Below, piece by piece: positions 3,037 through 38,389 of a DNA stretch of 64,000 bases. The position numbers and the translations under genes are program-made. The DNA lies in contig CAYGTO010000003.1 of the NCBI GenBank assembly GCA_964352815.1, positions 348 to 64,347 of the forward strand. Direction: 5' to 3'. Each line of letters starts with the position of its first letter. The stretch's first letter is position 1. Under the pieces are notes generated by a model. That model did not search any database. It saw only the letters and a list, made by a program, of their open reading frames with translations, and was not told the DNA's origin. The stretch comes from an uncultured Azospirillaceae bacterium. GTDB taxonomy: Bacteria; Pseudomonadota; Alphaproteobacteria; Rickettsiales; UBA3002.

Positions 3037-3672
3037 ATGATCAAACCGTTTACCATGATTGGTCTCATCCTCTTGCTTTTGGCAGGGACGGTTGCGCTTG
3101 GCTATGTTCTCTCGCGGCCAGAAGCGCCGATCAGCACGCGTAATTTTGTCGCACCAAGTGCTGAACCCACTGCGCACGACAAGACTTCGCTTTCAGTAGC
3201 ACCTGACTTTACTGCTCCGATATTGCACCCTGCTTCACAAGAAATGATTACGTTATCAGAGCATCGTGGGCGCTACGTGCTGCTGAATTTTTGGGCAAGC
3301 TGGTGTAGCCCGTGCCTAACCGAAATGCCTGAATTTATTACCCTCGCAAAGGCTCATCCGGATGATATCACCATTCTCGCACTGACCATTGATAGTAAAC
3401 AAGAGAAAGCGTCAGCATTTGTCACTGACACCTATGCTGAAGCGCTGGGTGACGCAAACAATATGATCTTTGCATGGGACGAAGCCGCACGCATTTCGCA
3501 AAAAAAGTTCGGCACATTCCGTATTCCGGAAAGCTACCTCATTGACCCGGAAGGTCAGATTATAAAGAAGTTTGCCGGCCCGGTGATAGAAGAGGATATA
3601 AACGAAATAGAAGCCGTCATTGCCACGTCAAGCGAGCAGAAAGCGAGCGCGCACAGGCAATCCATTCCATGA
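3037..3672 (+). CDS. TlpA/ResA-like periplasmic thiol:disulfide oxidoreductase (thioredoxin fold)
   Basis: N-terminal TM anchor (MIKPFTMIGLILLLLAG). Thioredoxin active site FWASWCSPC. Lies directly downstream of ccsBA. ATG at 3037 preferred over GTG at 3001, which overlaps ccsA. Confidence 0.8.
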   Translation: MIKPFTMIGLILLLLAGTVALGYVLSRPEAPISTRNFVAPSAEPTAHDKTSLSVAPDFTAPILHPASQEMITLSEHRGRYVLLNFWASWCSPCLTEMPEFITLAKAHPDDITILALTIDSKQEKASAFVTDTYAEALGDANNMIFAWDEAARISQKKFGTFRIPESYLIDPEGQIIKKFAGPVIEEDINEIEAVIATSSEQKASAHRQSIP

Positions 3673-3692
3673 ATGTCAGCAGACATTCATAT
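3616..3692 (+). repeat. Palindromic dispersed element, family 1 (GTCATTGCCACG..AAGCGAGCAGAAAGCGAGCGC..CAGGCAATCC..ATGAATGTCAGCAGACATTCAT)
   Basis: Near-identical copies at 10791-10862 (reverse) and 46966-47044. Partial copy at 49924-49973. Overlaps the last ~19 codons and the stop of tlpA. Confidence 0.7.
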
Positions 3693-8056: not shown

Positions 8057-8162
8057 CAGATCAGCTACTATTTTTCTTCAATTTCGTGTACTCAATTTTG
8101 AAAAACAGAGCTTTCTCTGATTTTGCGTTGAAAATGGATATTCAATCCATTTTCATCCGCAA
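8057..8162 (-). ncRNA. Candidate structured RNA element, copy C, immediately 3' of tRNA-Ala
   Basis: Shares TTGCGGATGAAAA-[hairpin 1]-CAACGCAAAATCAGAGAAAGCT-[hairpin 2]-AGCTGATCTG with copies at 12003-12104 and 28167-28268. Hairpin 1 shows compensatory changes. Hairpin 2 has a different sequence but still pairs. Confidence 0.4.
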
Positions 8163-8238
8163 TGGTGGAGCCTAGGAGATTCGAACTCCTGACCTCTTCG
8201 CTGCCAGCGAAGCGCTCTACCAACTGAGCTAAGGCCCC
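8163..8238 (-). tRNA. tRNA-Ala (anticodon GGC)
   Basis: Hand-folded cloverleaf: acceptor GGGGCCT/AGGCTCC with the G3:U70 Ala identity pair, anticodon loop CTGGCAG, T-loop TTCGAAT, encoded CCA. Confidence 0.95.
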
Positions 8239-8407: not shown

Positions 8408-9067
8408 ATGTCACCCATCACACGCACACTCGGCGTCGCACTGATTTCAGCCGTCGCGCTTTCTGGCGCAGCTCACGCCGACGGTTTCAAATTATGCGGC
8501 CAAGTCGCTAACGTTAACGACCAGATTCGTGACTGTGTCGTCACCAAAAATGCACATCAATTCAGCACGCTCAAGGATATGAAGAAGCTACGCAAAATGA
8601 CCATTACGGCAAAAGCGTATCGCCTAGATGACAAAGGGGCCGCCTATTTCGGACAAGCACCAAACCTAGAAAAAACCTTCAAATATTTTGCTGTGCACCA
8701 CGACAATCTCACAGCTGAAGGCATCAAATCATTCGAAGGCTTGCAAGCACTTGAAGAGGTCTACTTCTACAAATCGTCGCTGCCAGATGAAGGGATGAAA
8801 TCCATAGCGAAACTAAAAAACCTAGAGAAATTCGGCCACAGCGCGCCAAAGAATTTCGACGGTTCTGGTCTCGTTCATCTAAAAGCGCTGCCTAAGCTGA
8901 AAAAATTGAATCTGTCATACAGCTCGATTCCGCTAGAGAATTTGAAAGTGCTCGCCGAATACCCTGCACTTGAAGTGCTCGATTTGAATAAAACAGATCA
9001 CACACAGGAAGACCTTGAATTCTTGCTCATGGTGAACCCTGATATGCGCATCTTGACGGATCACTAA
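8408..9067 (+). CDS. Secreted leucine-rich-repeat (LRR) protein
   Basis: Signal peptide (ALISAVALSGAAHA). Repeated LxxLxxLxL units (LKNLEKF, LKALPKLKKLNLSYS, LENLKVLAEYPALEVLDLNKT). Confidence 0.7.
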   Translation: MSPITRTLGVALISAVALSGAAHADGFKLCGQVANVNDQIRDCVVTKNAHQFSTLKDMKKLRKMTITAKAYRLDDKGAAYFGQAPNLEKTFKYFAVHHDNLTAEGIKSFEGLQALEEVYFYKSSLPDEGMKSIAKLKNLEKFGHSAPKNFDGSGLVHLKALPKLKKLNLSYSSIPLENLKVLAEYPALEVLDLNKTDHTQEDLEFLLMVNPDMRILTDH

Positions 9068-10705: not shown

Positions 10706-10862
10706 GTCATCCTCGGGGCATTTGTCAGACCTGTCCTCCGAAGCTTTAGCGTAGGAGGAAGACAAATGATCCCGGGGATCCAGAATTGAAATGTCAGGAA
10801 GACATTCATGGAATGGATTGCCTGGATGCGCTCGCTTTCTGCTCGCTTACCGTGGCAATGAC
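10706..10862. repeat. Nested palindromic elements (family 2 carrying an inserted CCTCC..GGAGG hairpin, then family 1 in reverse)
   Basis: GTCATCCTCGGGGCATTTGTC...GACAAATGATCCCGGGGATCC resembles 59581-59625. The inner hairpin resembles 25492-25527. 10791-10862 is the reverse complement of the 3616/46966 element. Confidence 0.7.
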
Positions 10863-11010
10863 AGCATTTTAACGAGCGAAGCCAGCAGGCGTAGCCCTTC
10901 AGTTTCAGAAAATACACAAGCGAAGTCAGCAGACTTCGCCAGTCATGAACCCGCGAAGCGGCGTTCCATCGCGAGATCAGGAGATCGAGCGGGGAACAGA
11001 AAAAACAATT

Positions 11011-11037
11011 AAAAAAGGCCGGGATTTCTCCCAGCCT
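11011..11037 (-). terminator. Rho-independent terminator candidate for the 11063..11914 gene
   Basis: Minus strand reads AAGGCTGGGAGAAATCCCGGCCTTTTTT. GC stem followed by a T-run. Confidence 0.5.
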
Positions 11038-11062
11038 TATTGATGTTTGAATCTGCGTTCGC

Positions 11063-11914
11063 TTATGCGCGGCCCGCTTCCATCGATGCCAGCTCTTGCT
11101 GCGCACGCACCATATCTGCGTGGCCCATCTGAGGCCCGCCCTGACGCATCGCTGCTTCCATGGCTGCCATTTCTTCTGGCGTGACTTGCGGCATGCCGCC
11201 TTGCGGAGCGTAGGCTGCATTGTCATAGCCCATCTCATCCTCTTTGCTACCACCGAAGAGCGCACGTGCACCGAGGATCGCACCACCGATGATTGCTAAA
11301 CGGCCTGCAGCGCTTGCAGCGCGACCACCCAACCCTTCATAGGCTTTGATAGTTTCCGTGAGCTTCCCACCATTCTCTGCCACACGCGTCATGCCGGTGA
11401 ATGGCTTAACCATCCAATTCCATGCTTTGGTTAATCGTCCTGCCTTCTCAAGCCCACCGAGCGCCGCCTTCTCAAGATTCTTGATCACTCCGGCCAGTTC
11501 AGCACCTTCCACTGTAAAAGCTGCTTTAAAAGCTTCCTTGTCACCAAGCGCTTTCTTGACAGCTTCTTTGATGGCTTTCTCTGCTTCGCCCTCTTTCGCC
11601 AAATTTTCAGCTTTCAAGCCTTTCAAACTTTCCGTAACTTTCTCTGCCAAGGCTTTAAATGCGCCCTCTTCGGTTTTTACGGCGAGATTCTCAGCGCCCT
11701 TAATGCCTTTTATTGCTTCTTCGAGCTGGGCTACGAGCTCGTTCTGAATCTTTGATGCTGCATTTTCACCACCGAGATTCTCTGTAAGTGAGGCAAGCGC
11801 CCCCTTACTTTCAAACGCCTTCTTCATTTCAGCGAAGAACCCGCCTTTAATTGCTTCTTTATTCGTCAGTACTAGCACTGCTTCTTCTGTTGCCGCTTTT
11901 GCTTCTTCAGCCAT
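11063..11914 (-). CDS. Hypothetical Ala/Lys/Glu-rich protein with Gly-rich hydrophobic segment
   Basis: Start MAEEAKAAT preceded by SD AAGGGGA. Helical A/K/E repeats, then RLAIIGGAILGARALFGG. No family recognised. Confidence 0.65.
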   Translation of the reverse strand: MAEEAKAATEEAVLVLTNKEAIKGGFFAEMKKAFESKGALASLTENLGGENAASKIQNELVAQLEEAIKGIKGAENLAVKTEEGAFKALAEKVTESLKGLKAENLAKEGEAEKAIKEAVKKALGDKEAFKAAFTVEGAELAGVIKNLEKAALGGLEKAGRLTKAWNWMVKPFTGMTRVAENGGKLTETIKAYEGLGGRAASAAGRLAIIGGAILGARALFGGSKEDEMGYDNAAYAPQGGMPQVTPEEMAAMEAAMRQGGPQMGHADMVRAQQELASMEAGRA

Positions 11915-11950
11915 GGTTCTATCCCCTTCAGGTATAATTTCGATGCTCCC

Positions 11951-12006
11951 AGTATGCACATGCTTTGTTACAGTTTTATGACAGTCCGGTGACGGTTGTA
12001 TGACAA
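11951..12006 (-). promoter_or_regulatory. Tandem Pho-box-like direct repeats plus -10 hexamer
   Basis: Gene strand reads TTGTCATACAACCGTCAC cgga CTGTCATAAAACTGTAAC, then 10 nt, then CATACT. Confidence 0.5.
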
Positions 12007-12104
12007 TTGCGGATGAAAACGAATTGAATATTCGTTTTCAACGTAAAATTAGAGAAAGCTAGTCATGCGAGATGGCGGTCGAAGCATGGCTAAGCTGATC
12101 TGTG
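12003..12104 (+). ncRNA. Candidate structured RNA element, copy A
   Basis: Hairpin 1 is TGAAAACGAAT-TGAAT-ATTCGTTTTCA, perfect 11 bp. Hairpin 2 is AGCTAGTCATGC...GCATGGCTAAGCT. Conserved linker CAACGTAAAATTAGAGAAAGCT and 3' GCTGATCTG. Confidence 0.4.
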
Positions 12105-12173
12105 TGACACATTGCAACGTCATCTTCGGCCGCACTGCTGTGCGTGTCGGAGCTCTGTAGCATAACGTGAGAA

Positions 12174-12300
12174 GATCCCCGAGATCGGCTAAGCCGACTC
12201 GAGGATGACGTATTGAGAAGAACCGAGGTCAGGAAACCGAGCCTTTAGTCGGCGCAGCCGTTAGGCTCATTGCGTAGGACAGCAGTCCGGAGCAGGAGCG
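12174..12300. repeat. Palindromic elements (family 2 in reverse, then family 3)
   Basis: GATCCCCGAG..CTCGAGGATGAC, then CGAGGTCAGGAAACCGAGCCTTTAGTCGGCGCAGCCGTTAGGCTCATTGCG.., similar to 48960-49036, 51344-51409 and 56787-56898. Confidence 0.6.
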
Positions 12301-12311
12301 ATTTAAAAAAA

Positions 12312-13550
12312 TCAATTATCACTCATCTTCAACGCTTCAATAAAAGCGGTTTGCGGGATGTCGACATTCCCGATCGAGCGCATCTTTTTCTTACCTTTCT
12401 TCTGTTTATCCAGAAGCTTACGCTTCCGCGACACATCGCCGCCATAGCATTTCGCGGTCACGTCTTTACGCATCGCGGCAATGGTTTCGCGCGCAATCAC
12501 TTTGCCGCCAATCGCCGCTTGAATCGGAATCTTAAAGAGATGACGCGGGATCAAATCCTTCAAACGCCCACACAGCGCCCTGCCCCGCGGATCGGCCTGG
12601 CTGCGATGCACCATCATCGCCAGCGCATCGACATTCTCGCCATTGACCAAAATGGTCACCTTAACCAGATCACCCTCCTCATAGCCATCCATCTCATAAT
12701 CGAAGCTGGCATAGCCTTTGGTGCAGCTCTTCAGCCGGTCATAAAAGTCAAACACCACCTCATTAAGCGGCAAGCGATACACCGCCATCGCGCGGCTGCC
12801 GACATAGGTCAGATCCTTCTGAACGCCGCGTTTCTCGGTGCAAAGCGACAGCACATTGCCGAGAAATTCATCGGGCACCATGATCGTCGCCTTGATCCAC
12901 GGTTCTTCAATGCTGGCGATTTGCGTCGGGTCGGGGTAATCCGCCGGGTTATGCAGCTCCTTGGTCTCGCCATTGCTCAAATGCATTTTATAGACCACGC
13001 TCGGCGCGGTGGTCACCAGGTCACAGTCAAACTCGCGCTCGAGCCGCTCCTGGATGATTTCCAGATGCAGTAGCCCTAAAAATCCGCAGCGAAAGCCAAA
13101 GCCAAGCGCTTGAGATGACTCCATTTCATAGGAAAAGCTGGCATCATTCAACCGCAATTTCGCGAGCGACTCTTTTAAATGTTCAAACTCACCATTATCG
13201 GTCGGATACAGCCCACAAAACACCACTGACTGCACTGGCTTAAAGCCCGGAAGCGGCTTATCCGCAGGCTTTCCCGCATCGGTGATGGTATCCCCCACAT
13301 TGGTGTCGGCCACCTGCTTAATCCCGGTCATCATATAGCCGACCTCGCCCGCACTTAAGCTTTTTACCTGCGTCATTTTAGGTGTAAAATAGCCAAGTTG
13401 ATCGACGTCATGGACCGTTCCCGCATTCATCATCTTGATTTTCTGGCCTTTTTTAATCTCGCCTTCAAACACGCGAATGAGAATGATCACACCTAGATAA
13501 GTGTCATACCAGGAGTCGATAAGGAGGGCTTTGAGGGGGGTGTCGTGCAC
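12312..13550 (-). CDS. lepA: Elongation factor 4 (LepA), C-terminal fragment (domains II to C-terminal domain), separate ORF
   Basis: GTG-initiated ORF beginning [20 protein letters not shown]. That is the point where LepA continues after the G domain. The rest is LepA-like through to the C-terminus. Confidence 0.85.
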
Positions 13551-13659
13551 GTCTATTCTTTAATATGTTCCATTTTCATCATTGGAACGCATCAATAGAG
13601 GATTAACAATTGGCTGTCACTATATTATAGTAGCTACGCACAATCAAAGGAGGCATCTG

Positions 13660-13893
13660 ATGAAACTGACTGAAGAACAGACACACCAGATTACGGATGT
13701 GTTTAAAAAAGATCCCGAATTTGCGCGATATGTTGAGAGTATCGTGAATGATCTGTGGGATAAGAGCGACGCTGACGGCCGCATGGCGTTGGCGGGCAAT
13801 GTCGCATTCCACTTTCAACAGCGCGGCGTTGAGCTTCCGGTGAGCGCGGATGGGAGTGGCATCACGGTTCAGGATATACACGCAGCGCAATAG
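13660..13893 (+). CDS. Hypothetical small protein (77 aa) encoded inside the lepA-splitting insert, opposite strand
   Basis: ATG at 13660 preceded by a strong SD, AAAGGAGG. No family recognised. Confidence 0.5.
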   Translation: MKLTEEQTHQITDVFKKDPEFARYVESIVNDLWDKSDADGRMALAGNVAFHFQQRGVELPVSADGSGITVQDIHAAQ

Positions 13894-13905
13894 GCCAGTT
13901 AGAGG

Positions 13906-14478
13906 TTAGGCCGCCATTTTCGGCGCGGGAAGCCGGGTGACGATCGCTTCGAGCATTTCGTCAATCCCAAGGCCGGTTTTCGCGGAACAGAGCACGGCTT
14001 CGCTCGCATCAATCCCGATCACATCTTCAATCTGCTCGCGCACTCGGTCAGGGTCAGCGGCAGGAAGATCGATTTTGTTGAGCACAGGAATAATTTCGAG
14101 ATCTAAATCAATCGCCTGATAGACATTGGCGAGTGTCTGCGCTTCGACCCCTTGCGCAGCATCCACCACCAATAGCGCGCCTTCGCACGCCGCCAAACAG
14201 CGGCTCACCTCATAGGCAAAATCGACATGGCCCGGCGTGTCCATCAGGTTGAGAATATAGGTCTCGCCATCCTTGGCCTTATATTCGAGCCGCACTGTCT
14301 GCGATTTAATCGTAATCCCCCGCTCGCGCTCAATGTCCATATTATCGAGCATCTGCTCACCCAAATCCCGGTCCTCCACCGCGCCGCAGGCCTGAATCAG
14401 CCGGTCCGCCAGCGTCGACTTGCCATGGTCAATATGCGCAATGATAGAGAAATTTCGAATTTTCGTGATGTCTGTCAT
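13906..14478 (-). CDS. lepA: Elongation factor 4 (LepA), N-terminal GTPase-domain fragment, separate ORF
   Basis: G1 [10 protein letters not shown]3 DTPGH, G4 NKID. Ends ...[12 protein letters not shown]-stop, where intact LepA proteins continue in frame. Confidence 0.9.
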
Positions 14479-14653: not shown

Positions 14654-14687
14654 TCGTCATCATACTGTCATAGAGCACCGCTATACT
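14654..14687 (+). promoter_or_regulatory. Pho-box-like direct repeat plus -10 hexamer upstream of the ankyrin gene
   Basis: TCGTCATCATACTGTCAT, 10 nt, TATACT. The ATG lies 12 nt further downstream. Confidence 0.5.
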
Positions 14688-14698: not shown

Positions 14699-15868
14699 AT
14701 GGCAATAACACGCGAGAGGAATAGCAAATCTGTGCGATCATCTAAAAAGCAAGAACCATTACTGAGAACTCTAGAAGAGCTTTTAATAGAGGAAAAATTA
14801 CAGCATGACAAGCTGCTAGAGGCGATTCGTGTAAAAGATAATAGTGTCGCGCTGGATCTTATACAAAGCGGCGTTGCTCTTGACGTTAAAAACATGTTTG
14901 GCTCTACCGCTCTACACGAGGCATGCTTAAAGCGCATGGAGCCCGTCGCCATCGCAATGATTCAACATGGCGCGCCTCTTGATGCAACCGATATGGGCGG
15001 TGAAACGCCTTTACATGCGGCATGTTCTCGCAAATTAGAAAAAGCCGCAGAGCATATGCTTGATCGTGGCGCCAGTGTAAACACTGAAAACCAACAAGGA
15101 GACACAGCGCTTTTCTACGCGAGCTTAACTGAAATGAGTGATACCGTTGCGGCCATGATTAACGCCGGAGCAAAGCCACTTTCTATGGGACAGCTCTCTT
15201 CTTTGAGTTCGGATCAAAAGGAGTCTCTCGCAGGCATTGCACATTCTTTGGCAAAGCAAAATATCCCTCTAAAACATCTTGTCACATCTGAAATCACAAA
15301 CGATTTTTACTTGGCTTGTATGATGGGATGGGAAGATGCGGCAATAGCAATTATAGAGCAAAAAGGCATTCCTACACGGCTCAACGACACACAAAATGCG
15401 CTGCATTGTGCGTGCTCGAAAGGTTTACATAGCGTTGCCAGCTTATTACTGGATACAAAGAAGGGGCCATCTCTACTGAAACAAAAGAATATATTTGGTG
15501 AGACCCCTCTTCACATTGCGTGCTCGAAAGGTTTGTCGGATATTGCTTTAAAAATGATAGAAATGGGTGCACCACTTGATGCTGTCGATAAAACTGGCAA
15601 CACCCCCCTGCACCGGGCATGTGAGCGTAATTTAGGTCATGTGGCAAAGCGTATGCTGGAAAATGGGGCCAACCCTATGATAAGTAACCTGGAAGGAGAT
15701 ACTGCGCTCTCCATTTCTAAACGCCTAGAGATCCCAGAAGTCGCAGAACATATAGATAGGAGGTTTACTCATGGTGCCATTGATGAGTGTGCACCATGTA
15801 ATGTACTTGAAATAGTTGATGCGAGCCTGCAACCACTCAGTGTGGAGTCAATAGACCAGCAACGATAG
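14699..15868 (+). CDS. Ankyrin-repeat protein
   Basis: Multiple ANK units (GSTALHEACLK..., GETPLHAACSRK..., GDTALFYAS, GETPLHIACSKG, GNTPLHRACERN, GDTALSIS). Confidence 0.85.
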   Translation: MAITRERNSKSVRSSKKQEPLLRTLEELLIEEKLQHDKLLEAIRVKDNSVALDLIQSGVALDVKNMFGSTALHEACLKRMEPVAIAMIQHGAPLDATDMGGETPLHAACSRKLEKAAEHMLDRGASVNTENQQGDTALFYASLTEMSDTVAAMINAGAKPLSMGQLSSLSSDQKESLAGIAHSLAKQNIPLKHLVTSEITNDFYLACMMGWEDAAIAIIEQKGIPTRLNDTQNALHCACSKGLHSVASLLLDTKKGPSLLKQKNIFGETPLHIACSKGLSDIALKMIEMGAPLDAVDKTGNTPLHRACERNLGHVAKRMLENGANPMISNLEGDTALSISKRLEIPEVAEHIDRRFTHGAIDECAPCNVLEIVDASLQPLSVESIDQQR

Positions 15869-16666: not shown

Positions 16667-16834
16667 GGCTAGGCCAGGCACGCACGAAACATATGCAGCC
16701 CCGTTGGAAAACGGGGCCTCGTAGCCTTACGCTAGATCCCGGCTTTCGCCGGGATTACTGTTTCTGGGTTCTTTATGATTGGACTGCGTCGCATTTTCTG
16801 ACTAAAAAAACTTGCAGAACAACAGACTAAATTC

Positions 16835-18696: not shown

Positions 18697-18767
18697 GTCA
18701 TCCCGGCGAACGCCGGGATCTAGCATCCACATTTCAAAAAAGATTCCGGCTTCCGCCGGAATGACGA
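18697..18767. repeat. Palindromic element (GTCATCCCGGCGAACGCCGGGATC ... GATTCCGGCTTCCGCCGGAATGAC)
   Basis: Two GC hairpins bounded by GTCAT/ATGAC termini. A related half-copy lies at 16734-16755. Confidence 0.65.
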
Positions 18768-18768: not shown

Positions 18769-19236
18769 ATGAACAAGAATCCTACCAAGCAGTGGAATGA
18801 ACGGCGGTTTTACAAACTTAGCCTTCTGCTGCCCGTTTTATTTCCCATTATGTTAGTGATGTTCGTCATCCCTATTGCCGTTATTTATGCAATGGTGACG
18901 GGTGAAACCGTAGATAGTTTTTTGGAAACAGATATTGGCTATGTGCTTCTATGGATCACGCTAACCTTTGTCGGAGGCATCATATTAGCATCTTTTATAT
19001 ATTTGTTATGTGTTCCTATTGGTCTGCTCATTACACGAAATTGGTCCATGTTTGCATTTAAACTCTGGGGAATTTCACTCCCCATTCAGCTCACTGGGTT
19101 ATCATACGCACTCTATGGTGAAGCATGGTTGGCACTTGGGCTTCTTGTTGGCTACTTCTACGTTGCACTGGCCTTCGCAATCGGCTATTTCAAAAAGCGG
19201 TATCATTTGAAACATGGGACGTATGTTGGTGGGTAG
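18769..19236 (+). CDS. Hypothetical integral membrane protein (155 aa)
   Basis: About four hydrophobic helices. No family recognised. Confidence 0.5.
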
Positions 19237-19251
19237 CCATCTTCGCCCCAT

Positions 19252-19322
19252 GTCATTGCACGATTTATTCGGGCAATCCAACCAAAAAACTCTTGGATTA
19301 CCCGGACAAGCCAGGTAATGAC
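19252..19322. repeat. Palindromic element (GTCATTGCACGATTTATTCGGGCAATCC ... GGATTACCCGGACAAGCCAGGTAATGAC)
   Basis: The same two hairpin modules occur in swapped order at 38390-38461. Partial copy near 25660. Confidence 0.65.
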
Positions 19323-19328
19323 AAGGAC

Positions 19329-20738
19329 ATGAACACCAAAACCCTCTACGATAAAATCTTTGACGCTCACCTCGTGCATGAGGCCGAGGATGGCACCTGC
19401 CTGCTCTATATCGACCGGCAGATGATTCATGAAGTGACCAGCCCGCAAGCTTTTGAAGGGCTGCGCATGGCGGGGCGGACGCCGCGTCATCCCGAAGCAC
19501 AGCTCGCGGTGGCGGATCACAATGTGCCGACCACGCCCGACCGCGCGCAGGGGATTAAGGATGAAACCTCGCGCATTCAGGTCGAGACGCTCGAGAAAAA
19601 CTGCGAAGAATTCGGCATCACCTATTTCAAAATGGACGATCTGCGTCAGGGCATCGTGCATATTGTCGGCCCGGAACAAGGCTTCACCCAGCCCGGCATG
19701 ACGATTGTTTGCGGCGATTCACATACCTCCACCCATGGCGCGTTTGGCGCGCTGGCCTTTGGTATTGGGACGAGCGAAGTGGAACATGTGCTGGCAACGC
19801 AAACGCTGATTCAAAAACGCGCCAAGAATTTGCTCGTCAAGATTGAAGGTGAGCTTGGGCACTATGTCACCGCGAAAGACATTACCCTCGCGGTGATTGG
19901 CAAAATCGGCACGGCTGGCGGCACCGGCTATGTCATTGAATATGCCGGCTCGGCGATCCGCAATCTGTCGATGGAAGGGCGGATGACCGTGTGTAATATG
20001 AGCATCGAGGCAGGCGCGCGCGCAGGCCTGATCGCGCCGGATGAAAAAACCTTTGACTATTTGAAAGGCCGCCCGATGGCACCGCAAGGGGCGGATTGGG
20101 AGAAGGCCGTCGCCTATTGGAATACGCTGCCCGCGGATGACGGCGCGCACTATGATGTGGTGGTCGAGTTGGATGCCAGCGAGATTGCGCCGCAAGTCAC
20201 CTGGGGCACCAGCCCGCAAGATGTGCTGCCAATCACCGGTCAAGTCCCCTCGCCTGACAGTTTTGATACCGGCCGCAAGGAAGCGGTTGAGCGCTCGCTC
20301 AATTATATGGGCCTCAGCGCCGGCACGAAACTCACCGATGTGCCGATTGATAAAGTGTTTATCGGCTCTTGCACCAATGGCCGGATTGAAGATTTGCGCG
20401 AAGTGGCGAAGCTGGCCGAGGGCAGAAAAGTTGCGAGCAATGTGAGGCTCGCCATGGTGGTGCCGGGATCGGGCCTGGTGAAACAGCAAGCCGAAGCGGA
20501 AGGGCTGGACAAAATTTTTGTTGCTGCCGGCTTTGAGTGGCGCGAGCCGGGCTGTTCGATGTGCCTCGCGATGAATGCGGACAAGCTCGAGGAAGGGGAG
20601 CGCTGCGCCTCGACCTCAAACCGGAATTTCGAAGGCCGCCAAGGCCGCGGCGGGCGCACTCATCTGATGAGCCCGGCCATGGCAACGGCTGCCGCGATCA
20701 CCGGCAAGCTTGCCGATGTTCGGAAACTGGCGGGTTAG
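19329..20738 (+). CDS. leuC: 3-isopropylmalate dehydratase large subunit
   Basis: [16 protein letters not shown]..., aconitase-family Cys ligands ([19 protein letters not shown]). The ORF-track N-terminal extension reads through a repeat and is rejected. Confidence 0.9.
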
Positions 20739-21658
20739 GCAGCGCCTAACGAATGTAATGGCGCTTCCTGAACAGTGCCATCTACTTGCGCGCCGTCTGC
20801 CACGGGTGACGGCTCTAATAGTTTCTTCATCGCTTTCAGATAACCATCGAACGTTTTGTACCCGATTTGTTTTGCCATCTCACCGCGAAACCGCTGAGAC
20901 TTAATCATGTCGCCCCTAATGCCTTGCACCTCATCACACATAACTTTGTATATATCTTTGATAATCTGCGCTGCTTGTGCGGCGTCTTGCACCACTCCAT
21001 ACGCCACAAGCTCTTCCGGTGTCGCCACGCGCATTTTATGGATGTCGACCTGCGCTGCCTTCACCGCATCCGTGCGACTCATATTCTGTGCCACTTCCAT
21101 GGTTAAGGCAGAAGCTTTCTCGGCATCTTTTTGCTCAATCTCGCCGAAAAGGGGCTGATCCACACCAAGCATACGGAAGACCAGGCCACGAATATTTTCA
21201 TTGATCTGATCTTTCGGAATAGCATTAAAATATTCGTCAATCAGCATTTCCACTTCTCCTCCTCGTGACGATTGAAGCGCCATACGCACACGCCCCATCG
21301 CAGGGAGATATCCGGCCTGTGCAAACACGTCATCAGCCATATCACCTATCGATTGCCTTTCATAATACGACAAGGTGAGAGGAATTTGCGCGAATGCCCA
21401 GTCATCAAGATGGACTGGTCCCTGACCCTCTAAAAAACCAATCTCCAACACATTGGCGAAGGCGAATTGTTCCTTTTTTGGGGGCAGGTACGCATGACTC
21501 CCAGCCTGTTTGATACAGTCGCCTGTTTCGCATCCTTCTTTCACTGCAGAAAGGTAAACATCCTTCTTTCCAGCCAGCGTAAGAAACGCCCGCGACATCT
21601 GCATAGGGATAGATTGGGTTGTTTGTAGTAGTTTTAATTCGTCTTCACGGTCCATCAT
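20735..21658 (-). CDS. Hypothetical protein (about 307 aa) inserted antisense between leuC and leuD
   Basis: Long ORF. Start placed at MMDREDEL, downstream of the predicted promoter. Its stop overlaps the leuC stop (TTAG). No family recognised. Confidence 0.6.
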
Positions 21659-21683
21659 TCTCTCATCAATTAAATGAAACGAT

Positions 21684-21728
21684 ACCATAGCGCACTGTCT
21701 GAGACATTGCATGACAGTTTGATGACAA
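21684..21728 (-). promoter_or_regulatory. Pho-box-like triple direct repeat plus -10 hexamer
   Basis: Gene strand reads TTGTCATCAAACTGTCATGCAATGTCTCA, then TATGGT 21 nt after the second repeat. Confidence 0.45.
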
Positions 21729-21962: not shown

Positions 21963-22424
21963 ATGAAAAATGTACTCATGATCGTTGGAGCCGTGTTTCT
22001 CATCGGCCTCATCGGGGGAGGCGTCTGGATCGCCAGCATGATCTCAAAAGGTGCTGAACTAGACGCTTCCTCACGCGCGTTTGTGGAAGAGAAAATTCCT
22101 GAACTTGCGCGAAATAAATGGTATGGCCCCTATATGAGGCCGCTCGCACACAGTGCGTTTATGGAAGCCGTCTCCATGGAAGATTGGCAGCGCATCTCGA
22201 CGCTTTATTGGCAAAAGCTGGGCATGCTGAACGATTATGGTCCATGCGAAGGGCAAGCGACGATGAATTACACGCCAGAGGGTGAAGAAATCAGCGCCGA
22301 ATATGTCTGCGACGCGCGCTTTGAAAAAGCTAATGCAACCATTGAACTCCGCCTTTTTATTGAGAATAATGACTGGAAATTGGTCAACATATCGGTTAAT
22401 TCTCCTGTGTTCTTGAATCAGTAA
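21963..22424 (+). CDS. Hypothetical membrane-anchored protein (153 aa)
   Basis: N-terminal TM ([24 protein letters not shown]). No family recognised. Confidence 0.55.
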
Positions 22425-22432: not shown

Positions 22433-23041
22433 ATGGAATCATTCACGAAACATACGGGCCGCGCGGCGCCCTTGCCCTTGATCAATGTCGATACGGACAT
22501 GATCATTCCGAAGCAGTTTCTGAAAACGATTAAGCGCACCGGCCTTGGCGCGAATCTGTTTGACGAAATGCGCTTCACGAAAGACGGCGCGGAAATTCCG
22601 GAATTTGTACTGAATCAAGAAGCCTATCGCAGCGCATCCGTGCTGATCAGCGGCGATAATTTTGGCTGCGGCTCGAGCCGTGAGCATGCGCCTTGGGCAT
22701 TGCTGGATTTTGGTATTCGCTGCGTGATTGCGCCGAGCTATGCCGATATTTTCTATAATAATTGCTTCAAGAATGGGATCTTGCCAATCGCATTGCCAAA
22801 CAATCAGGTGGACGCGCTGACGCAAGTCGCTGCTAACCCGGATAATGAAATTACGATCGATTTAGAAAGCCAAAAAATCCGCGCGATGAATGTCGAATAT
22901 GATTTTGATGTCGATCCGTTTCGTAAACATTGCCTAATGAACGGGCTCGATGATATTGGTCTAACGCTCGAGAAAGCCGTATCGATCGATGCGTATGAAA
23001 CGCAGCGTAAAAGCGAAACCCCATGGCTGTTCGCGAGCTAA
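22433..23041 (+). CDS. leuD: 3-isopropylmalate dehydratase small subunit
   Basis: [28 protein letters not shown] and [17 protein letters not shown] motifs. Confidence 0.9.
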
Positions 23042-25449: not shown

Positions 25450-25491
25450 TCTTTCCGCTTGATTGCTTAGTTACCATTCTGCGAGGAGCGA

Positions 25492-25690
25492 CTTGTCCTC
25501 CGTAGCTTTAGCGTAGGAGGAAGCGACGCGGCAGTCCATTCATACTGCAAGAATGGGTCGCGCCTGCCCGACGAAGCCTTGGCGCAGCAGGGTGGCGAAG
25601 GCTGGTCGTCAGCGCCAGTGCGCTTCCTCACGAAACGTCACTTCTATGCCATATTTCCCTTGGATTACCCGAATAAATCGGCTAATAACA
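25492..25690. repeat. Cluster of palindromic element fragments
   Basis: CTTGTCCTCCGTAGCTTTAGCGTAGGAGGAAGCGAC resembles 10730-10762. GGATTACCCGAATAAATCGGCTAAT resembles modules at 19252 and 38390. Confidence 0.5.
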
Positions 25691-25722
25691 TGCATTCACT
25701 AATGACGAAAGACTAAAGACCT

Positions 25723-26763
25723 ATGACTGGATTTAATGTAGCCATTGTCGGTGCGACGGGAAATGTCGGCCGCGAATTATTGAGCATTCTGGCGGAGCGT
25801 AATTTCCCGGTGAATCAGGTGGCGGCGTTGGCCTCATCACGCTCGATCGGCAAGGAAGTCAGCTTTGGCGATGAGAAAATTTTGAAGGTACAAGACCTCG
25901 AAACCTTTGACTTCTCGAACACCGATATCGCGCTGTTCTCGCCCGGCGGTTCGGTGTCGGCGAAACATGCGCCGCGCGCGGCAAAGCAAGGCTGCGTGGT
26001 GATCGACAATACCAGCCATTTCCGCATGGATGAAGATGTGCCGCTGATTGTGCCGGAAGTGAACCCGGAGAAGCTGAAGGAGTTTGCGAAACGCAATATC
26101 ATCGCCAACCCAAACTGTTCGACGATTCAGATGATGGTCGCGCTCGCGCCGATTCATAATGAAGTGGCGATTAAGCGCGTCGTGGTCAGCACCTATCAGT
26201 CGGTGTCAGGCGCAGGGAAATCGGCGATGGATGAGCTGTATGACCAGACCAAATCGATCTATGTCAATGATGTGAAAGAGCCGGAGCAATTCACGAAACG
26301 CATTTCTTTCAACGCGATTCCGCATATTGATGTGTTCATGGAAGATGGCGCGACCAAAGAAGAATGGAAAATGTGCGTTGAGACAAAAAAGATTCTCGAC
26401 CCGTCGATTGAGGTCCATGCGAATTGCGTGCGCCTGCCGGTCTTTGTCGGCCATGGCGAGATGATCAATATCGAGCTGGAAGAGCCGCTAAGTGTCGAGG
26501 ATGCGCATGAGATTTGGGACGAAGCTGACGGCATTGCGGTGGTCGATCGCCATGAAGATGGCGGCTATATGACGCCGGCGGAATGTGCGGGCGAAGATGC
26601 GGTCTATATCAGCCGTGTGCGCCAGGATACGAGCGTGAAACATGGCCTGTCTTTTTGGTGTGTGTCGGACAATATGCGCAAAGGCGCGGCGCTCAATGCG
26701 ATTCAAATCGCGGAACATTTGGTAGCGCACGGCCTTGTGAAACCGCGCGAGAAGGCGGCATAG
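25723..26763 (+). CDS. asd: Aspartate-semialdehyde dehydrogenase
   Basis: VAIVGATGNVGRE, NPNCSTIQM (active-site Cys), SGAGK. Confidence 0.92.
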   Translation: MTGFNVAIVGATGNVGRELLSILAERNFPVNQVAALASSRSIGKEVSFGDEKILKVQDLETFDFSNTDIALFSPGGSVSAKHAPRAAKQGCVVIDNTSHFRMDEDVPLIVPEVNPEKLKEFAKRNIIANPNCSTIQMMVALAPIHNEVAIKRVVVSTYQSVSGAGKSAMDELYDQTKSIYVNDVKEPEQFTKRISFNAIPHIDVFMEDGATKEEWKMCVETKKILDPSIEVHANCVRLPVFVGHGEMINIELEEPLSVEDAHEIWDEADGIAVVDRHEDGGYMTPAECAGEDAVYISRVRQDTSVKHGLSFWCVSDNMRKGAALNAIQIAEHLVAHGLVKPREKAA

Positions 26764-26764
26764 T

Positions 26765-28099
26765 CTAGGCGGCTCTCCCGAAGCGTCCTGCCCCCTCTTT
26801 ACGAATACGCGCCATGATTTCTCTATCTTTTTTCTCGACCTTGGCAATAAGATCACGCACCTTTTGTTTGGCCGCCACGTGCTCTGGCGTCAAGAACACT
26901 CCGGCGCGTACATCCCTAGTTTTTTCACCACCTTTCTTCGTCTGGCCATTGGCAAAGGGTGCAAGTGCCCGTATTTGACTATCACACGTCATATCGTTTC
27001 CATGCTTATCTTGCCCAGTTTGCTGGAGAATTTTCTCCTGATAGTCTCGGTCGGGCTGAATTTCAGAATCGGGTTTCTGCTCAATGCCTGCCCCTTGAGC
27101 AATCCGTTCTACATACTCTTCAAAGGGGAGAATGTCTGCTCCCTCATGCGCCCATGCGCAGGGTAGATAGGTGTGCTCAAGCTTAACTCCGGACATATCA
27201 TTTATTTCTCCGCGTTTTTCAAGCGCCGCCCGGATGACCTTGACTTGGTCCATGATCACTGGACGGAAAGACGGGCATGCTCTTAGCGCGCTGCGTATAT
27301 CTTCGGGCGTTTTGATAATTTTCGCACCTCGCTCGATGTCTTGTCCTTGCGCACGCAAATAGCCACGATATTCGCCTTCAAGCGCAGGAAGAATCGGAGT
27401 AAAGCGCGGGCCTTTGAGCACATGCCATGTTTCATTACATTTCGGAGTTGGCAGCAACAGCCCGGTCCTTAGCACATCCACCAGCTGCATTTCGCTTGGA
27501 AGCCCTGCCTGTATTGCCGTGATGGATGCTCTTTCTTGAACATGCGTGCTGCCATTCTCGCCGCGATATTGAGCCCCTTTCAGGTGAGGAATTAGGTTTT
27601 CAATGCCTTTTACTTCGACAATATACATTCGGAGCTTCTCTGGAGCTCCCGATTTTGTGGGATAGGCTACCGTGGCAAACTCCCGAATACCAGAGTCGCC
27701 ATTGTGCCTGACCAGGCTTACCCCATCATAAGGCTCGACTGTTTCTCCTCCCTTAGCTGTACCATTGGTATGGAGAATCCGGCTCAAGTCAATTCCGGTT
27801 TCTTCATGCACCTCTTTGATCGCGCCTTCAAGAATGGTTTTATCTGAATCGCTTTTGACACCGCCTTTCGCATAGGTGTAGAATTTTTGGCCATCTTTGC
27901 GAAATTTGCCTTCATTGTACGGCGCAACAATATGTGTGACCTTATGCGTACCACCTTTACCATCAGGCATTTCGACATCACCGATAATGAAGACCCCGGC
28001 CTTGCCGGGCTTATCTTTCATTTTTTCCGCACAATCGGCAATGTACCCGTTCCACCGCTTTTCGGGATTTTTAGGGGGTTTCTTTTTTGGTGCCATCAT
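26765..28099 (-). CDS. Hypothetical protein with N-terminal Nudix-like domain and basic NLS-like N-terminus
   Basis: GGVKSDSDKTILEGAIKEVHEETGI approximates the Nudix box (Gx5Ex7REUxEExGU, with K for R). N-terminus MMAPKKKPPKNPEKR. The C-terminal ~250 aa are unrecognised. Confidence 0.6.
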   Translation of the reverse strand: MMAPKKKPPKNPEKRWNGYIADCAEKMKDKPGKAGVFIIGDVEMPDGKGGTHKVTHIVAPYNEGKFRKDGQKFYTYAKGGVKSDSDKTILEGAIKEVHEETGIDLSRILHTNGTAKGGETVEPYDGVSLVRHNGDSGIREFATVAYPTKSGAPEKLRMYIVEVKGIENLIPHLKGAQYRGENGSTHVQERASITAIQAGLPSEMQLVDVLRTGLLLPTPKCNETWHVLKGPRFTPILPALEGEYRGYLRAQGQDIERGAKIIKTPEDIRSALRACPSFRPVIMDQVKVIRAALEKRGEINDMSGVKLEHTYLPCAWAHEGADILPFEEYVERIAQGAGIEQKPDSEIQPDRDYQEKILQQTGQDKHGNDMTCDSQIRALAPFANGQTKKGGEKTRDVRAGVFLTPEHVAAKQKVRDLIAKVEKKDREIMARIRKEGAGRFGRAA

Positions 28100-28124
28100 C
28101 TCTGCCTTTCATTCAATTGAAATA

Positions 28125-28170
28125 ATTATGACCGGTTTTGTTGAGAATATGTGTGACGGTTCTGTGACAA
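28125..28170 (-). promoter_or_regulatory. Pho-box-like direct repeat plus -10 hexamer
   Basis: Gene strand reads TTGTCACAGAACCGTCAC, 22 nt, CATAAT. The box is contiguous with structured-element copy B. Confidence 0.4.
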
Positions 28171-28268
28171 TTGCGGATGAAAAACGCTTGAATAGCGGTT
28201 CTCAACGCAAAATCAGAGAAAGCTTAGCCTATGTGAGACGAAGGTCGAAGCATGGCTTAGCTGATCTG
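28167..28268 (+). ncRNA. Candidate structured RNA element, copy B
   Basis: Aligns with copy A over ~100 nt. Hairpin 1 is degenerate (2 mismatches). Hairpin 2 is AGCTTAGCCTATG...CATGGCTTAGCT. Confidence 0.4.
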
Positions 28269-28391
28269 CCCAACCACATGCAAATGCGTCGCATTTACGT
28301 GTGAATAACCCCCTCACTTGCAAGCTTTATTCGGAAAAATAGATGCATTCATACTTCGGATGCGCTATACCATTTTGTAATGGTCGGAGGC

Positions 28392-28419
28392 TTGCATTTA
28401 TGCGCAGCGCCGCTATACT
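28392..28419 (+). promoter_or_regulatory. Sigma70-like promoter candidate for sdhCDAB
   Basis: TTGCAT, 16 nt, TATACT. Ends 26 nt upstream of the sdhC ATG. Confidence 0.35.
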
Positions 28420-28445
28420 TTAGAACAATTATAAATAGGTAGGTT

Positions 28446-28844
28446 ATGTCACACCCAAGCACGGAACGCCCGCTCTCGCCGCATTTGACAATCTATAAGC
28501 CCCAAATCACCTCGATGCTCTCTATCATGCACCGGATCACCGGAACGGTGAACGCTATCGGCCTGATTGTGCTGATTGGATGGCTATGGTCGGCGGCATT
28601 TGACGCTAAATATTACGCCTGCTTACAAGAAATTTTCGCAAGCCAGCTCGGGAAGATTGCACTGATAGGCTGGACGCTGACTTTCTTCTACCATTTAAGC
28701 AACGGTATTCGCCATCTATGGTGGGATATGGGCAAAGGCTTTCAGCTTAAGCACGTGACGCTTAGTGGTATTTTCGTGGTTGGTCTCGCAATTGGCCTTA
28801 CCGCAGTGACCTGGTATCACATTATTCAAACGACAGGATGGTAA
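28446..28844 (+). CDS. sdhC: Succinate dehydrogenase cytochrome b556 subunit
   Basis: RPLSPHLTIYKPQITSMLSIMHRITG signature and three TM helices. Confidence 0.85.
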   Translation: MSHPSTERPLSPHLTIYKPQITSMLSIMHRITGTVNAIGLIVLIGWLWSAAFDAKYYACLQEIFASQLGKIALIGWTLTFFYHLSNGIRHLWWDMGKGFQLKHVTLSGIFVVGLAIGLTAVTWYHIIQTTGW

Positions 28845-28846
28845 GC

Positions 28847-29299
28847 ATGGCAACGAACCCACACCCTTTCCGATCGGACGCTTCTAAAGCTCATGGGCTT
28901 GGCCCTGCTGGCCACGGCACGCATCACTGGATCTATCAACGCCTGACGGCGATTGTCATCGCGCCGCTGGCCGTATGGTTCTGGTTTAGCGTTATTACCA
29001 AAATGATTGGCGCGCCGATTCTGGTAATTGAGCAATGGTTTTCAAGCCCCTATGTCGCCGTGCTAATGGCTGCCTTCATCATCGCCGTATGCACCCATGC
29101 GAAACTTGGCCTTCAAGTGGTCATCGAAGATTATGTGCATGCAAAATGCACCAAAATCGGCATGCTCATCGCGATCAAGCTGCTGTATTTGGGATTAATG
29201 CTGATGGGCCTCGCGGCCGTCGCATCCCTCCACTTTAACGGCGCCGTTGAAGTCGCTGATATTGTTGCCCTTTCACCCGTTCAGATAGACGAAAACTAG
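28847..29299 (+). CDS. sdhD: Succinate dehydrogenase membrane anchor subunit
   Basis: GTHHWIYQRLTAIVIAPL heme-ligand helix. Position between sdhC and sdhA. Confidence 0.8.
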   Translation: MATNPHPFRSDASKAHGLGPAGHGTHHWIYQRLTAIVIAPLAVWFWFSVITKMIGAPILVIEQWFSSPYVAVLMAAFIIAVCTHAKLGLQVVIEDYVHAKCTKIGMLIAIKLLYLGLMLMGLAAVASLHFNGAVEVADIVALSPVQIDEN

Positions 29300-29308
29300 G
29301 AAATCATC

Positions 29309-31141
29309 ATGGCAGAATCAAAAATCGATGTGAATGAAATCAACATTGGCGGCACCGCCTACGCGTTTGAGGATCACTATTTCGACGTGATCGTGGTTGG
29401 CGCAGGGGGTGCGGGCTTGCGCGCTACCTTTGGTATGGCCGCGGAAGGGCTGAAAACCGCATGTTTGACTAAAGTCTTCCCGACCCGCTCACATACGGTG
29501 GCGGCGCAGGGCGGAATTTCAGCGGCACTGGGCAATATGGGCGCCGATGATTGGCGCTGGCATATGTATGACACGATCAAAGGTTCGGATTGGCTGGGTG
29601 ATCAAGATGCGATTGAGTATCTGTGCAAAAATGCGATTCCGTCAGTGATCGAGCTTGAGCATTACGGTGTGCCCTTCTCACGGACTGAGGAAGGCAAAAT
29701 CTACCAACGCCCATTTGGCGGCATGACCACGGAATTTGGCGAAGGCCCGGCAGCGCAGCGCACCTGCGCCGCAGCAGACCGGACCGGTCATGCGATTCTA
29801 CACACGCTTTACACCCAAGCGCTAAAAAATGACGCGCAATTCTTTATCGAATATTTCGCGATCGATCTGCTGATGAATGATGAGGGCGAATGTTGTGGCG
29901 TACTCGCGCTGAACCTGGATGACGGCTCTCTGCACCGCTTTTGGGGCCATGAAACTGTGCTCGCGACCGGCGGCTATGGCCGCGCCTATTTCTCCTGCAC
30001 TTCAGCACATACCTGCACCGGCGATGGCGGTGGCATGGCGGTGCGCGCGGGACTACCACTGCAAGATATGGAGTTCGTTCAATTCCACCCGACCGGTGTC
30101 TATGGCGCAGGCTGTTTGATTACCGAAGGGGTGCGCGGCGAAGGCGGATACCTCGTGAATTCTGAGGGCGAGCGCTTCATGGAGCGCTATGCACCCTCGG
30201 CGAAAGACCTTGCTTCGCGAGATGTGGTGTCACGCTCAATGACCATGGAAATCAATGAAGGGCGCGGTGTGGGCGCCGAGAGAGATCATATTTACCTACA
30301 TCTCGATCATCTGCCAGATGATGTGATCGATAAACGCCTACCAGGCATTGCCGAAACCGCAAAAATTTTCGCTGGCGTCGATGTGAAGAAACAGCCAATC
30401 CCGGTCTTGCCAACGGTGCATTACAATATGGGCGGGCTGCAAACCAACTACCACACCGAAGTGGTGACGCTGAAAGATGGCAACCCCGATCATGTGGTGC
30501 CCGGCTTGATGGCGATTGGTGAAGCGGGCTGTATTTCGGTCCATGGCGCGAACCGTCTGGGCTCGAACTCACTCCTCGATCTCGTCGTGTTTGGCCGTGC
30601 GGCTGCGCACCGCGCACGTGAAGTGATCAAGCCACGCCAGGCGCATCGCAAAGCGCCGCTGAGCGCGACCGAAAAATCGCTGGAGCGGTTCGACCGTATC
30701 CGCCACAGCAAAGGCTCGCTTGGAACTTCTGAGATCCGCCTCAATATGCAAAAAGCCATGCAACAGCATGCTGCCGTGTTCCGTACGGACGCGTCACTCA
30801 AGGAAGGGCTTGAGAAAATCACCAAAATCTACCGCTCTTTCAGCGACATTGGCATTAAGGATCGCGGCTTGATTTGGAACAGCGATCTGATCGAAGCGCT
30901 TGAGCTTGATAATCTTCGTAGTCAAGCCGTGATCACCATGGCATCGGCGGAGAACCGTAAGGAAAGCCGAGGCGCGCACGCACAGGAAGACCATACGGAG
31001 CGTGATGATAAGAACTGGATGAAGCATACGCTGTGCTGGGTCGAAGAAAATGGCGACACCAACATCGACTATCGCCCAGTTCGTCTGCACACGCTAACCG
31101 ATGATTGCGATGCGATTCCACCGAAAAAGCGTGTCTACTAA
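29309..31141 (+). CDS. sdhA: Succinate dehydrogenase flavoprotein subunit
   Basis: [14 protein letters not shown] fold. [10 protein letters not shown] (covalent FAD His). [19 protein letters not shown]. Confidence 0.95.
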
Positions 31142-36239: not shown

Positions 36240-36361
36240 ATCGGGGGCGAAAATGATTATCTATCATTTTCTTGAAGCGATCTCCGAGGCTTATGTTTTG
36301 TGAGGTGAGTGTATCGAGCCGAAATAAACCATTTAGCCGCAGGTGAGCACCGGAACCTAAC

Positions 36362-38361: not shown

Positions 38362-38389
38362 ATGGGATACGCAAAGTATAAACGAAGTT

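Follow-up and report, generated by a model that had tools for sequence, protein, structure and literature searches.

A two-hairpin intergenic repeat flush with tRNA 3′ ends and Pho-like boxes in an uncultured Azospirillaceae bacterium

We analyzed a 64,000-nucleotide (nt) stretch of DNA from an uncultured Azospirillaceae bacterium (positions 348 to 64,347 of contig CAYGTO010000003.1, assembly GCA_964352815.1; hereafter the window), in which an earlier inspection of the letters alone (the sequence-only reading) had proposed a three-copy element with two hairpins as a candidate novel structured RNA. Here, we describe a family of six members, each a two-hairpin element of ~100 bases, with five in the window on both strands and one in a relative (contig L027). 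The repeat family itself, and the keeping of its helices through sequence turnover, stood up to analysis, but the proposal of a novel structured RNA was supported only in part, for the structure and not for a stand-alone RNA gene. We read the element, with roughly even confidence, as a lineage-specific modular intergenic repeat, a hairpin cassette that sits at transcription-unit edges and is co-transcribed with its neighbors.

Six copies and their landmarks

Three of the window copies, here called type 1, lie where the sequence-only reading had placed them and have the layout that it described, TTGCGGATGAAAA-HP1-CAACGYAAAATYAGAGAAAGCT-HP2-AGCTGATCTG, in which HP1 and HP2 are the first and second hairpins. 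Their 21-nt core (CAACGYAAAATYAGAGAAAGC) occurs exactly three times in the window, versus 0.00 times expected from 100 shuffles. Copy A, on the plus strand, extends from 12006 to 12102; the extent first given for it, 12003–12104, had taken in three bases of the Pho-like box with which the copy is flush. It comprises an outer stem P1 (12007–12011/12042–12046), HP1 (12014–12024/12030–12040) with the loop TGAAT, a linker (12047–12056) and an HP2 that starts at 12057 between AGCT anchors, and its closing CTG ends at 12102; beyond its 3′ side lies lepA, which converges on it. Copy B (28170–28268, +) is also flush with a Pho-like box and sits between a divergent NUDIX-like gene and sdhC, which reads away on the 3′ side. 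Its HP1 carries two mismatches on the element strand, and the opposite strand reads as a stem followed by U5. Copy C (8057–8163, −) begins on the base after the CCA end of tRNA-Ala(GGC) (8163–8238, −), as had been noted, and faces a converging FMN reductase gene. In place of the usual HP2 it has an unrelated hairpin between the same anchors, again as described. The copy also contains the mini-hairpin CAGAGAAAGCTCTG followed by T5. In a scan of the window and relatives with a type-1 covariance model (R1), the three copies score 85.1 (A), 85.9 (B) and 89.3 (C) bits, the L027 element gives a weak match (16.3 bits, E 0.08), and three more distant relatives (L029–L031) give none.

Two further window members have diverged. 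What had been taken for a partial HP1 module at 36244 is actually a complete two-hairpin copy (36238–36345, +; type 2, hereafter the 36238 copy). In order, it consists of an outer stem AGATCG/CGATCT, an HP1 with the arms GAAAATGAT/ATCATTTTC, the block CTCCGAGGCTT, a weak HP2 and the block TTAGCCGCAGGTG, and it spans the whole gap from a Pho-like box, with which it is flush, to the stop codon of a converging tetratricopeptide-repeat (TPR) gene (36362–37363). T3 (54263–54363, −; type 3) begins on the first base after the CCA end of tRNA-Lys(UUU) (54364–54439, −), faces a converging pirin gene and has the same two-hairpin layout; GAGTGTATCGAG is common to T3 and the 36238 copy. It is recovered as the best new match by profiles built without it, whether from the two type-2 members (E = 2.4e-4) or from the five other members (E = 2.5e-3). 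The second type-2 member lies in L027 (1485–1593, +), flush with a Pho-like box and with sdhC reading away on its 3′ side. Sequence-only profiles do not join type 1 with types 2 and 3, and the link between them rests on shared architecture, short common motifs, the weak covariance-model match and the use of the same orthologous slot. A solo HP1-like hairpin, AAAAATGAT-TAAAT-ATCATTTTT (56828–56850, +; 17.8 bits, E 0.039), lies beside another repeat family in the convergent spacer between an unannotated 687-amino-acid gene and tgt; its stem is identical to the HP1 stem of the 36238 copy.

All six members begin 0–2 nt from one of two kinds of landmark, the CCA end of a tRNA (C and T3) or a Pho-like box at its outer border (A, B, the 36238 copy and the L027 member). 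Both tRNAs in the window carry a member, and both sequence subfamilies are found at both kinds of landmark. Random insertion would not be expected to put two subfamilies flush with two shared kinds of landmark, and this placement is the unusual feature of the family. The boxes adjoining A and B are Pho-type direct repeats that read TGTCAy-N5-CGTCAC on the minus strand. At copy A, two tandem boxes (11968–12005, −; four half-sites with 11-nt spacing) lie upstream of gene 11063–11914, and the outer box touches the copy; the second, near-consensus box (CTGTCATAAAACTGTAAC) has a −10-like CATACT 10 nt downstream. The box that touches copy B (28154–28169, −) is that of the NUDIX-like gene (26765–28096), and the box of gene 35451–36161 (36223–36239, −; CTTCATAAAACTGTCAC) overlaps the first 2 nt of the 36238 copy. 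That A and B abut Pho-like boxes had been recognized before; the adjoining genes had been called orphans, but the neighbor of B encodes a diverged NUDIX-domain protein.

The contact with boxes could mean that the element is a DNA-level module of Pho-like promoters, an AT-rich, curved or protein-bound upstream region that aids or modulates activation by the response regulator, with the tRNA-linked members being look-alikes or secondary uses. Consistent with such a module, four of the six members are in contact with the outer half-site, the same box variant (GTGACGGTT) lies inside the repeated unit in A and B (repeat family D1), and HP1, with 31–41% G+C in a window of 52%, places A/T tracts just upstream of the box. 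We nonetheless consider this reading very improbable. Four other box promoters of the window (14655, 21712, ~54620 and 60286) and two in the relative L030 lack the element, the tRNA-linked members have no box, and a double-stranded site would need neither a self-complementary variable center nor a strand-biased fold.

The Pho-box-like direct repeats (TGTCA-N6-TGTCA) of the window, at 11968–12005, 14655–14670, 21712–21727, 28154–28169, 36223–36239, 54616-34 and 60286–60301, are of interest in their own right. For the five downstream genes measured, the distance from box to start codon is ~55–72 nt, and the boxes precede genes for an ankyrin-repeat protein (14699–15868), the NUDIX-like protein and several proteins without a Pfam match; Pho-like boxes also precede unannotated genes in L030. 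Together, they look like the outline of a response-regulator regulon of possible host-interaction genes. The presence of leucine-rich-repeat (8408–9067, +) and ankyrin-repeat (14699–15868, +) proteins beside core housekeeping operons hints at a host-associated life.

Folding, strand asymmetry and transcription signals

On the element strand, type-1 copies are predicted to fold into an 11-bp HP1 with the loop UGAAU, an A-rich linker and an HP2 between AGCU anchors, closed by CAGA/UCUG; the outer stem P1 (UUGCG/CGYAA) also encloses HP1. Their fold energies of −37 to −39 kcal/mol correspond to z = −5.3 to −7.3, the latter being the value for the whole of copy C with its exchanged HP2. The changes on both arms of HP1 between A and C, which had been read as compensatory, are as described. 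In an ungapped 58-nt alignment of the 5′ half, the 16 pairs are 95.8% paired, versus 37–48% in slid-partner controls, and four pairs are changed on both sides, a number reached by 8 of 500 shuffles. T3 folds at −30.4 kcal/mol (z = −3.4), and the HP1 of the L027 element has 20 bp. From a MAFFT alignment of the six members, RNAalifold recovers only the base of HP2 because HP1 is not alignable by sequence. With six members, no covariation statistic can separate selection on an RNA from upkeep of a palindrome at the DNA level.

The form of HP1, an A-tract, a short stem and a T-tract, resembles that of a bidirectional intrinsic terminator. Exact A4-stem-T4 hairpins number seven in the window, versus 0.04 in shuffles, and the set includes the HP1s of A, C and the 36238 copy, the solo hairpin at 56828 and a canonical GC-rich terminator hairpin in the convergent spacer at 32960. 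Every HP1 reads on the opposite strand as a short stem followed by U4–U6, and HP1 is equally stable on both strands. The likeness to bidirectional rho-independent terminators extends to position. In C and T3, HP1 stands between convergent units, and in A and the 36238 copy it follows an upstream gene; it also has the form of the hairpins at 32960 and 56828, which themselves stand in convergent spacers. The same four of the six members face a converging gene on the 3′ side (lepA for A, the TPR gene for 36238, FMN reductase for C and pirin for T3) and lie at the 3′ end of a transcription unit, which B and L027 do not. Among the box promoters of the window, the element is present where the upstream gene has the same direction (A and 36238) and absent where the neighbor is divergent (the four others), B being the exception; the two in L030 that lack it also have a divergent upstream neighbor.

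Several observations weigh against reading the element as a hairpin cassette of this kind. A rho-independent terminator is expected to have a G+C-rich stem of at least 5 bp, a short loop and then a U-tract. The core stems of HP1 are short and AT-rich, a simple terminator scan flags none of them, picking out only the mini-hairpin of copy C among the copies, and the outer stem, if formed, would pair the U-tract. The element also adds a second hairpin and invariant blocks that no terminator needs, and B and L027 sit between divergent genes, with nothing obvious to terminate. In each of the six members the element strand gives the more stable HP2, by 6–11 kcal/mol in the five taken separately and by ~4 for T3 as a whole element; in the five members counted, folds of this strand have 11 G-U pairs and a single A-C mismatch. 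This bias and the excess of G-U pairs suggest that selection acts on transcripts running in the element direction, and under the cassette model box-linked copies should have none of these. Type-1 substitutions are concentrated in stems (B versus C: 7 of 22 stem positions, 0 of 36 elsewhere), which argues for a sequence-specific constraint on the unpaired blocks that the cassette model leaves unaccounted for. A cassette does not explain why HP2 is strand-biased, why the unpaired blocks do not vary or why two members lie between divergent genes, and a true RNA therefore stays a rival.

In that alternative, which we think possible but rather doubtful, the element strand would give rise to structured small RNAs, with the tRNA-linked ones released as 3′ trailers and the box-linked ones transcribed divergently from the box edge. 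A promoter at the box edge would overlap the response-regulator site and hence be controlled by the regulator. The invariant unpaired UUGCGGAU, the loop UUGAAUA and AAAAUCAGAGAAAG would be the parts that pair or bind protein, and the hairpins would provide stability. Besides the strand bias and the G-U excess, small RNAs would account for the compensated variation of stems next to invariant unpaired blocks, for the identity of the type-2 11-mer and 13-mer blocks in two organisms despite a NUDIX-protein identity of only 39%, and for the fact that in C and T3 conservation starts, on the 5′ side, right at the site of tRNA processing. There is also a precedent in E. coli, where the tRNA 3′ trailer 3′ETS-leuZ acts as a regulatory RNA (PMC6191717). 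C and T3, and only these, likewise fill the exact stretch from a tRNA 3′ end to a transcript end; however, the four other members have no tRNA link, the element has no known pairing partner, and 3′ETS-leuZ is not a repeat family.

Signals for the start and end of such RNAs are mixed. All box-linked copies have a weak −10-like hexamer (GACAAT, GACATT, GAAGAT) at the box/element junction, and a promoter scan scores ATGACA-18-GACAAT in copy A. However, the scan gives nothing for copy B and no convincing element-strand promoter for the box-linked copies, and junction hexamers of this kind are a by-product of any Pho box read backward. No copy has a canonical terminator that would end a discrete RNA, no member has a U-tract terminator after HP2, and transcription from A and the 36238 copy would enter lepA and the TPR gene in antisense. 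Folded whole, the 36238 copy does no better than shuffles (z = −1.4), and the HP2 modules of the 36238 and L027 members reach only z = −1.4 and −1.6. To find five paralogs in 64 kb is common for repeats but uncommon for small-RNA genes, the copies differ in flanking context, and intergenic repeats are known to mimic small RNAs (PMC2573895). A more elaborate version, which we hold to be unlikely, would make the family a new class of structured RNA with one mature 5′ end reached by two routes, cleavage behind a tRNA or initiation at a box edge. Its invariant single-stranded blocks would be functional, and binding of the regulator would switch between the adjacent effector-like gene and the divergent RNA.

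Distribution and comparison with known elements

Searches beyond the window returned few matches. The core pattern gave only five chance matches in 185,579 reference genomes and 18 unrelated matches, mostly in one gut gene, in JGI metagenomes; viral contigs held no match to either of the patterns searched, and plasmids gave no blastn match. The comparison with Rfam (release 15) that had been suggested for copies A, B and C returned nothing relevant even at E ≤ 10; at the gathering threshold, the whole window yields only the two tRNAs and SAM_alpha. The nearest named relatives of the window SdhA are ~80% identical and come from metagenome bins labeled Rickettsiales or Alphaproteobacteria bacterium, and the nearest relative reached was L027 (Logan run SRR26541455), with an SdhA that is 90% identical.

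The L027 element occupies the slot orthologous to that of copy B, flush with the Pho-like box of the same divergent gene. Copy B is 83–87% identical to its paralogs A and C but barely alignable with the element in this orthologous slot, which instead resembles the 36238 copy of the window and has the same two type-2 blocks. The NUDIX-like gene next to B has itself diverged from its L027 counterpart, and a homolog search returned only the query; its position beside sdhC is kept in relatives. In L029 (Tara marine metagenome), L030 (GCA_020054645.1) and L031, the NUDIX/sdhC arrangement and the promoter-proximal half-site (GTGTGACA) of the box are kept, and the element is absent. The spacers of these distant relatives are shorter (150–170 nt, compared with 349 nt in the window and 409 nt in L027). 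Together with the database searches, this comparison restricts the element to a narrow lineage. Logan contigs of several runs have the same sequence as the window, with no insertion polymorphism seen. The contig L008 (equal to window 26123–30037; run ERR3535001) matches exactly except for seven mismatches in its last 37 bases, within sdhA, pointing to the presence of a related second strain or species there.

Exact junctions would also be produced by a miniature nonautonomous mobile element, or left by an integration-site remnant, that targets ...AC(C/A)A at tRNA 3′ ends and TGACA at half-sites; the recombinase or transposase would be encoded elsewhere in the genome, and the strand-specific hairpins would be recognized as single-stranded DNA. 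Such an element would explain junctions of 0 nt at two kinds of site, both occupied by both subfamilies. The NUDIX-box slot is occupied by type 1 in the window but by type 2 in L027, possibly through independent insertions, and strand-biased folding suits single-stranded-DNA systems. The right flank of copy A (TGTGACACATTGC) repeats the left junction TGTGACA-ATTGC (3 of 500 shuffles), and GCTCCA stands on both sides of copy C. Elements derived from IS200/IS605 insert 3′ of a fixed tetra- or pentanucleotide; the left flanks of the six members (TGACA, TGACA, CACCA, CACCA, TGACA and TGAAG) have only a loose AC(C/A)A in common. Against these points, flank comparison gives only weak repeats as candidate target-site duplications, which are inconsistent between copies and weak after multiple testing. 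The 49 window proteins scanned include no match to a transposase, integrase or reverse-transcriptase family, the proximal half-site at the B locus is ancestral, and the identical contigs from several runs give no sign of movement. We thus judge a mobile origin improbable, and both this reading and that of a DNA-level promoter module are less likely than small RNAs.

Comparison with the known mobile classes leads in the same direction. Terminal inverted repeats are lacking, ATTGCGGATG at one end and AGCTGATCTG at the other not being inverted copies of each other as they would be in a MITE (a miniature transposable element bounded by inverted repeats). HP1 and HP2 are unlike within a copy, and each differs between copies, in contrast to the similar subterminal hairpins that IS200/IS605-type transposases recognize as ends. 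The ~35-nt palindrome with a 5′ GTAG-type tetranucleotide that is typical of REP/BIME repeats is found in no copy, and no transposase-like protein, such as the RAYT that accompanies them, was found in the window, to which this comparison is limited. A match to the end of a known mobile element or to an attachment (att) site had been named by the sequence-only reading as a result that would count against it. For an att site, which calls for an integrase gene and a direct repeat of the tRNA 3′ end at the far border, no integrase was found among the window proteins scanned, and only GCTCCA recurs after copy C. Three other candidates were set aside. Copies C and A are not the inverted ends of a 3.8-kb composite element, given that there is no flanking duplication and no mobility gene and that B is solo. 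A small coding frame, IADEN..RKIRES, lacks a start codon and continues through the tRNA. A second tRNA-Ala(GGC) (48218–48307, −), considered as an island border, is a 90-nt ARAGORN false positive inside bipA/typA that has no Rfam support.

Several features of mosaic intergenic repeats of the BOX/RIME type, in contrast, are present. The family has five members in 64 kb on both strands, its modules appear exchangeable (copy C has a swapped HP2, HP1 occurs alone at 56828, and one motif recurs in another repeat, R85), and reference genomes, metagenomes and L029–L031 all indicate a narrow lineage. BOX, RUP and SPRITE of Streptococcus pneumoniae are small interspersed repeats of ~100–200 nt that are intergenic and modular, have extensive predicted secondary structure, are found in one species group, and lack a transposase of their own; they are co-transcribed with their neighbors and thought to affect their expression (PMC3049150). 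The present element resembles them in these respects, with co-transcription inferred in its case. It has no sequence similarity to them, however, and belongs to a different phylum. BOX elements have defined A/B/C modules and more than 100 copies, and mosaic repeats of this type run to tens or hundreds per genome, whereas the present family was counted in the 64-kb window and in short Logan contigs of the organism, and no association of BOX with tRNA ends or response-regulator boxes has been described. Closer in phylogeny, the Rhizobium-specific intergenic mosaic elements (RIME) reported by Osteras et al. in 1995 are said to be ~100 bp long with two large palindromes. RIME and the Sm-repeats share with our element an alphaproteobacterial host, an intergenic position, a mosaic build of ~100 nt with two palindromes, and conservation of both primary sequence and secondary structure. 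They differ in that no sequence match was found and in that RIME elements are not known to be placed flush with tRNA ends or regulator boxes. These rhizobial repeats also confound the search for small RNAs and are a known source of false predictions (PMC2573895).

Repeat-rich setting and possible role

A repeat scan of the window found 18 direct-repeat families and 12 inverted pairs, including many short palindromic families, and the presence of many such families in the same 64 kb is the usual setting of dispersed intergenic repeats. One of them, the structured R85 family, lies at 12224–12308 (+), 48951–49035 (−), 51360–51420 (+) and 56787–56880 (+), the last copy being split by a hairpin insertion. 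The motif CCGAGsCTTTAG..CGCAGG is common to R85 and the type-2 HP2 module, and this shared sequence points to modular, mosaic repeats. In two cases, R85 ends in GGAGCGGGAGC just ahead of a start codon, that of bipA and that of the homoserine O-succinyltransferase gene, and it may be a shared 5′ leader. Further palindromic intergenic repeats lie at 3613–3683, 10801–10865 and 46965–47033; at 19233–19324, 25656–25692 and 38388–38480; at 16731–16758 and 18697–18724; at 40668–40711 and 42100–42143; and at 10728–10761 and 25490–25594. Their types include GTCATTGCC...GGCAATGAC, TTGGATTACCCG...CGGGTAATCC and GTCATCCCGGCG...CGCCGGGAT. Logan contigs of the organism break exactly at short palindromic repeats; one (L032) spans 10834–12201.

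The lepA gene beyond copy A is in two parts (12312–14478, −), with a GTPase domain (13906–14478) that ends in a stop and domains II to C-terminal (12312–13550) that have a new GTG start. The break falls exactly at the domain boundary, and the ~355 nt between the parts (13551–13905) hold a 103-amino-acid open reading frame on the opposite strand (13582–13893) without a Pfam match; lepA here is a pseudogene or else a split gene that holds a small inserted one. Between the genes for the large (19125–20738) and small (22433–23041) subunits of an enzyme of the aconitase family, probably leuC and leuD, lie two genes without a Pfam match (20735–21712, −, and 21963–22424, +), one of which has a Pho-like box. 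As in lepA, a conserved pair thus appears to be interrupted by lineage-specific genes. A SAM_alpha (SAM-II) riboswitch (49697–49771, +; 37.1 bits, compared with a gathering score of 36) lies upstream of the genes for a pyridoxal-phosphate-dependent enzyme of Cys/Met metabolism (49998–51308) and homoserine O-succinyltransferase (51422–52372).

We favor a model in which the element is a cassette of two modules, a 5′ module with an AT-rich HP1 of bidirectional-terminator form, usually within P1, and a 3′ module with a longer, imperfect HP2 between short conserved blocks. The cassette would stand flush against the unit that it bounds, be it a tRNA gene at its 3′ end or a Pho-like box at its outermost half-site, and would be transcribed only within the transcripts of its neighbors, as tRNA trailers in one direction and as the 3′ ends of converging genes in the other. 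From their position, it is very likely that C and T3 are transcribed as tRNA trailers. HP1 could act as a weak bidirectional terminator or insulator, such that the cassette would stop or attenuate read-through, incoming transcription would be kept from running antisense into a tRNA or a regulated promoter, and the transcripts would gain a structured 3′ end. The family may have spread and been homogenized within the genome by duplication or by recombination between copies, with modules that could be exchanged, as suggested by copy C's HP2, the lone HP1 at 56828 and the motif found also in R85. We infer the termination or insulation activity, the co-transcription and the mode of spread from layout and position. 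A cassette of this kind accounts for the positions of four members, the absence of promoter and terminator signals for a separate RNA, the greater similarity between paralogs than between orthologs, and the repeat-rich background.

In summary, small structured intergenic repeats are a kind of element already known, and the family described here is a new one. If the cassette model is correct, the family would mark the ends of transcription units, which would aid annotation of this uncultured lineage, and it should be masked before small RNAs are predicted. The flush landmarks would be informative whatever their cause, whether they reflect insulation of regulated promoters and tRNAs in a compact genome, target-specific spread, or an RNA linked to a regulator.

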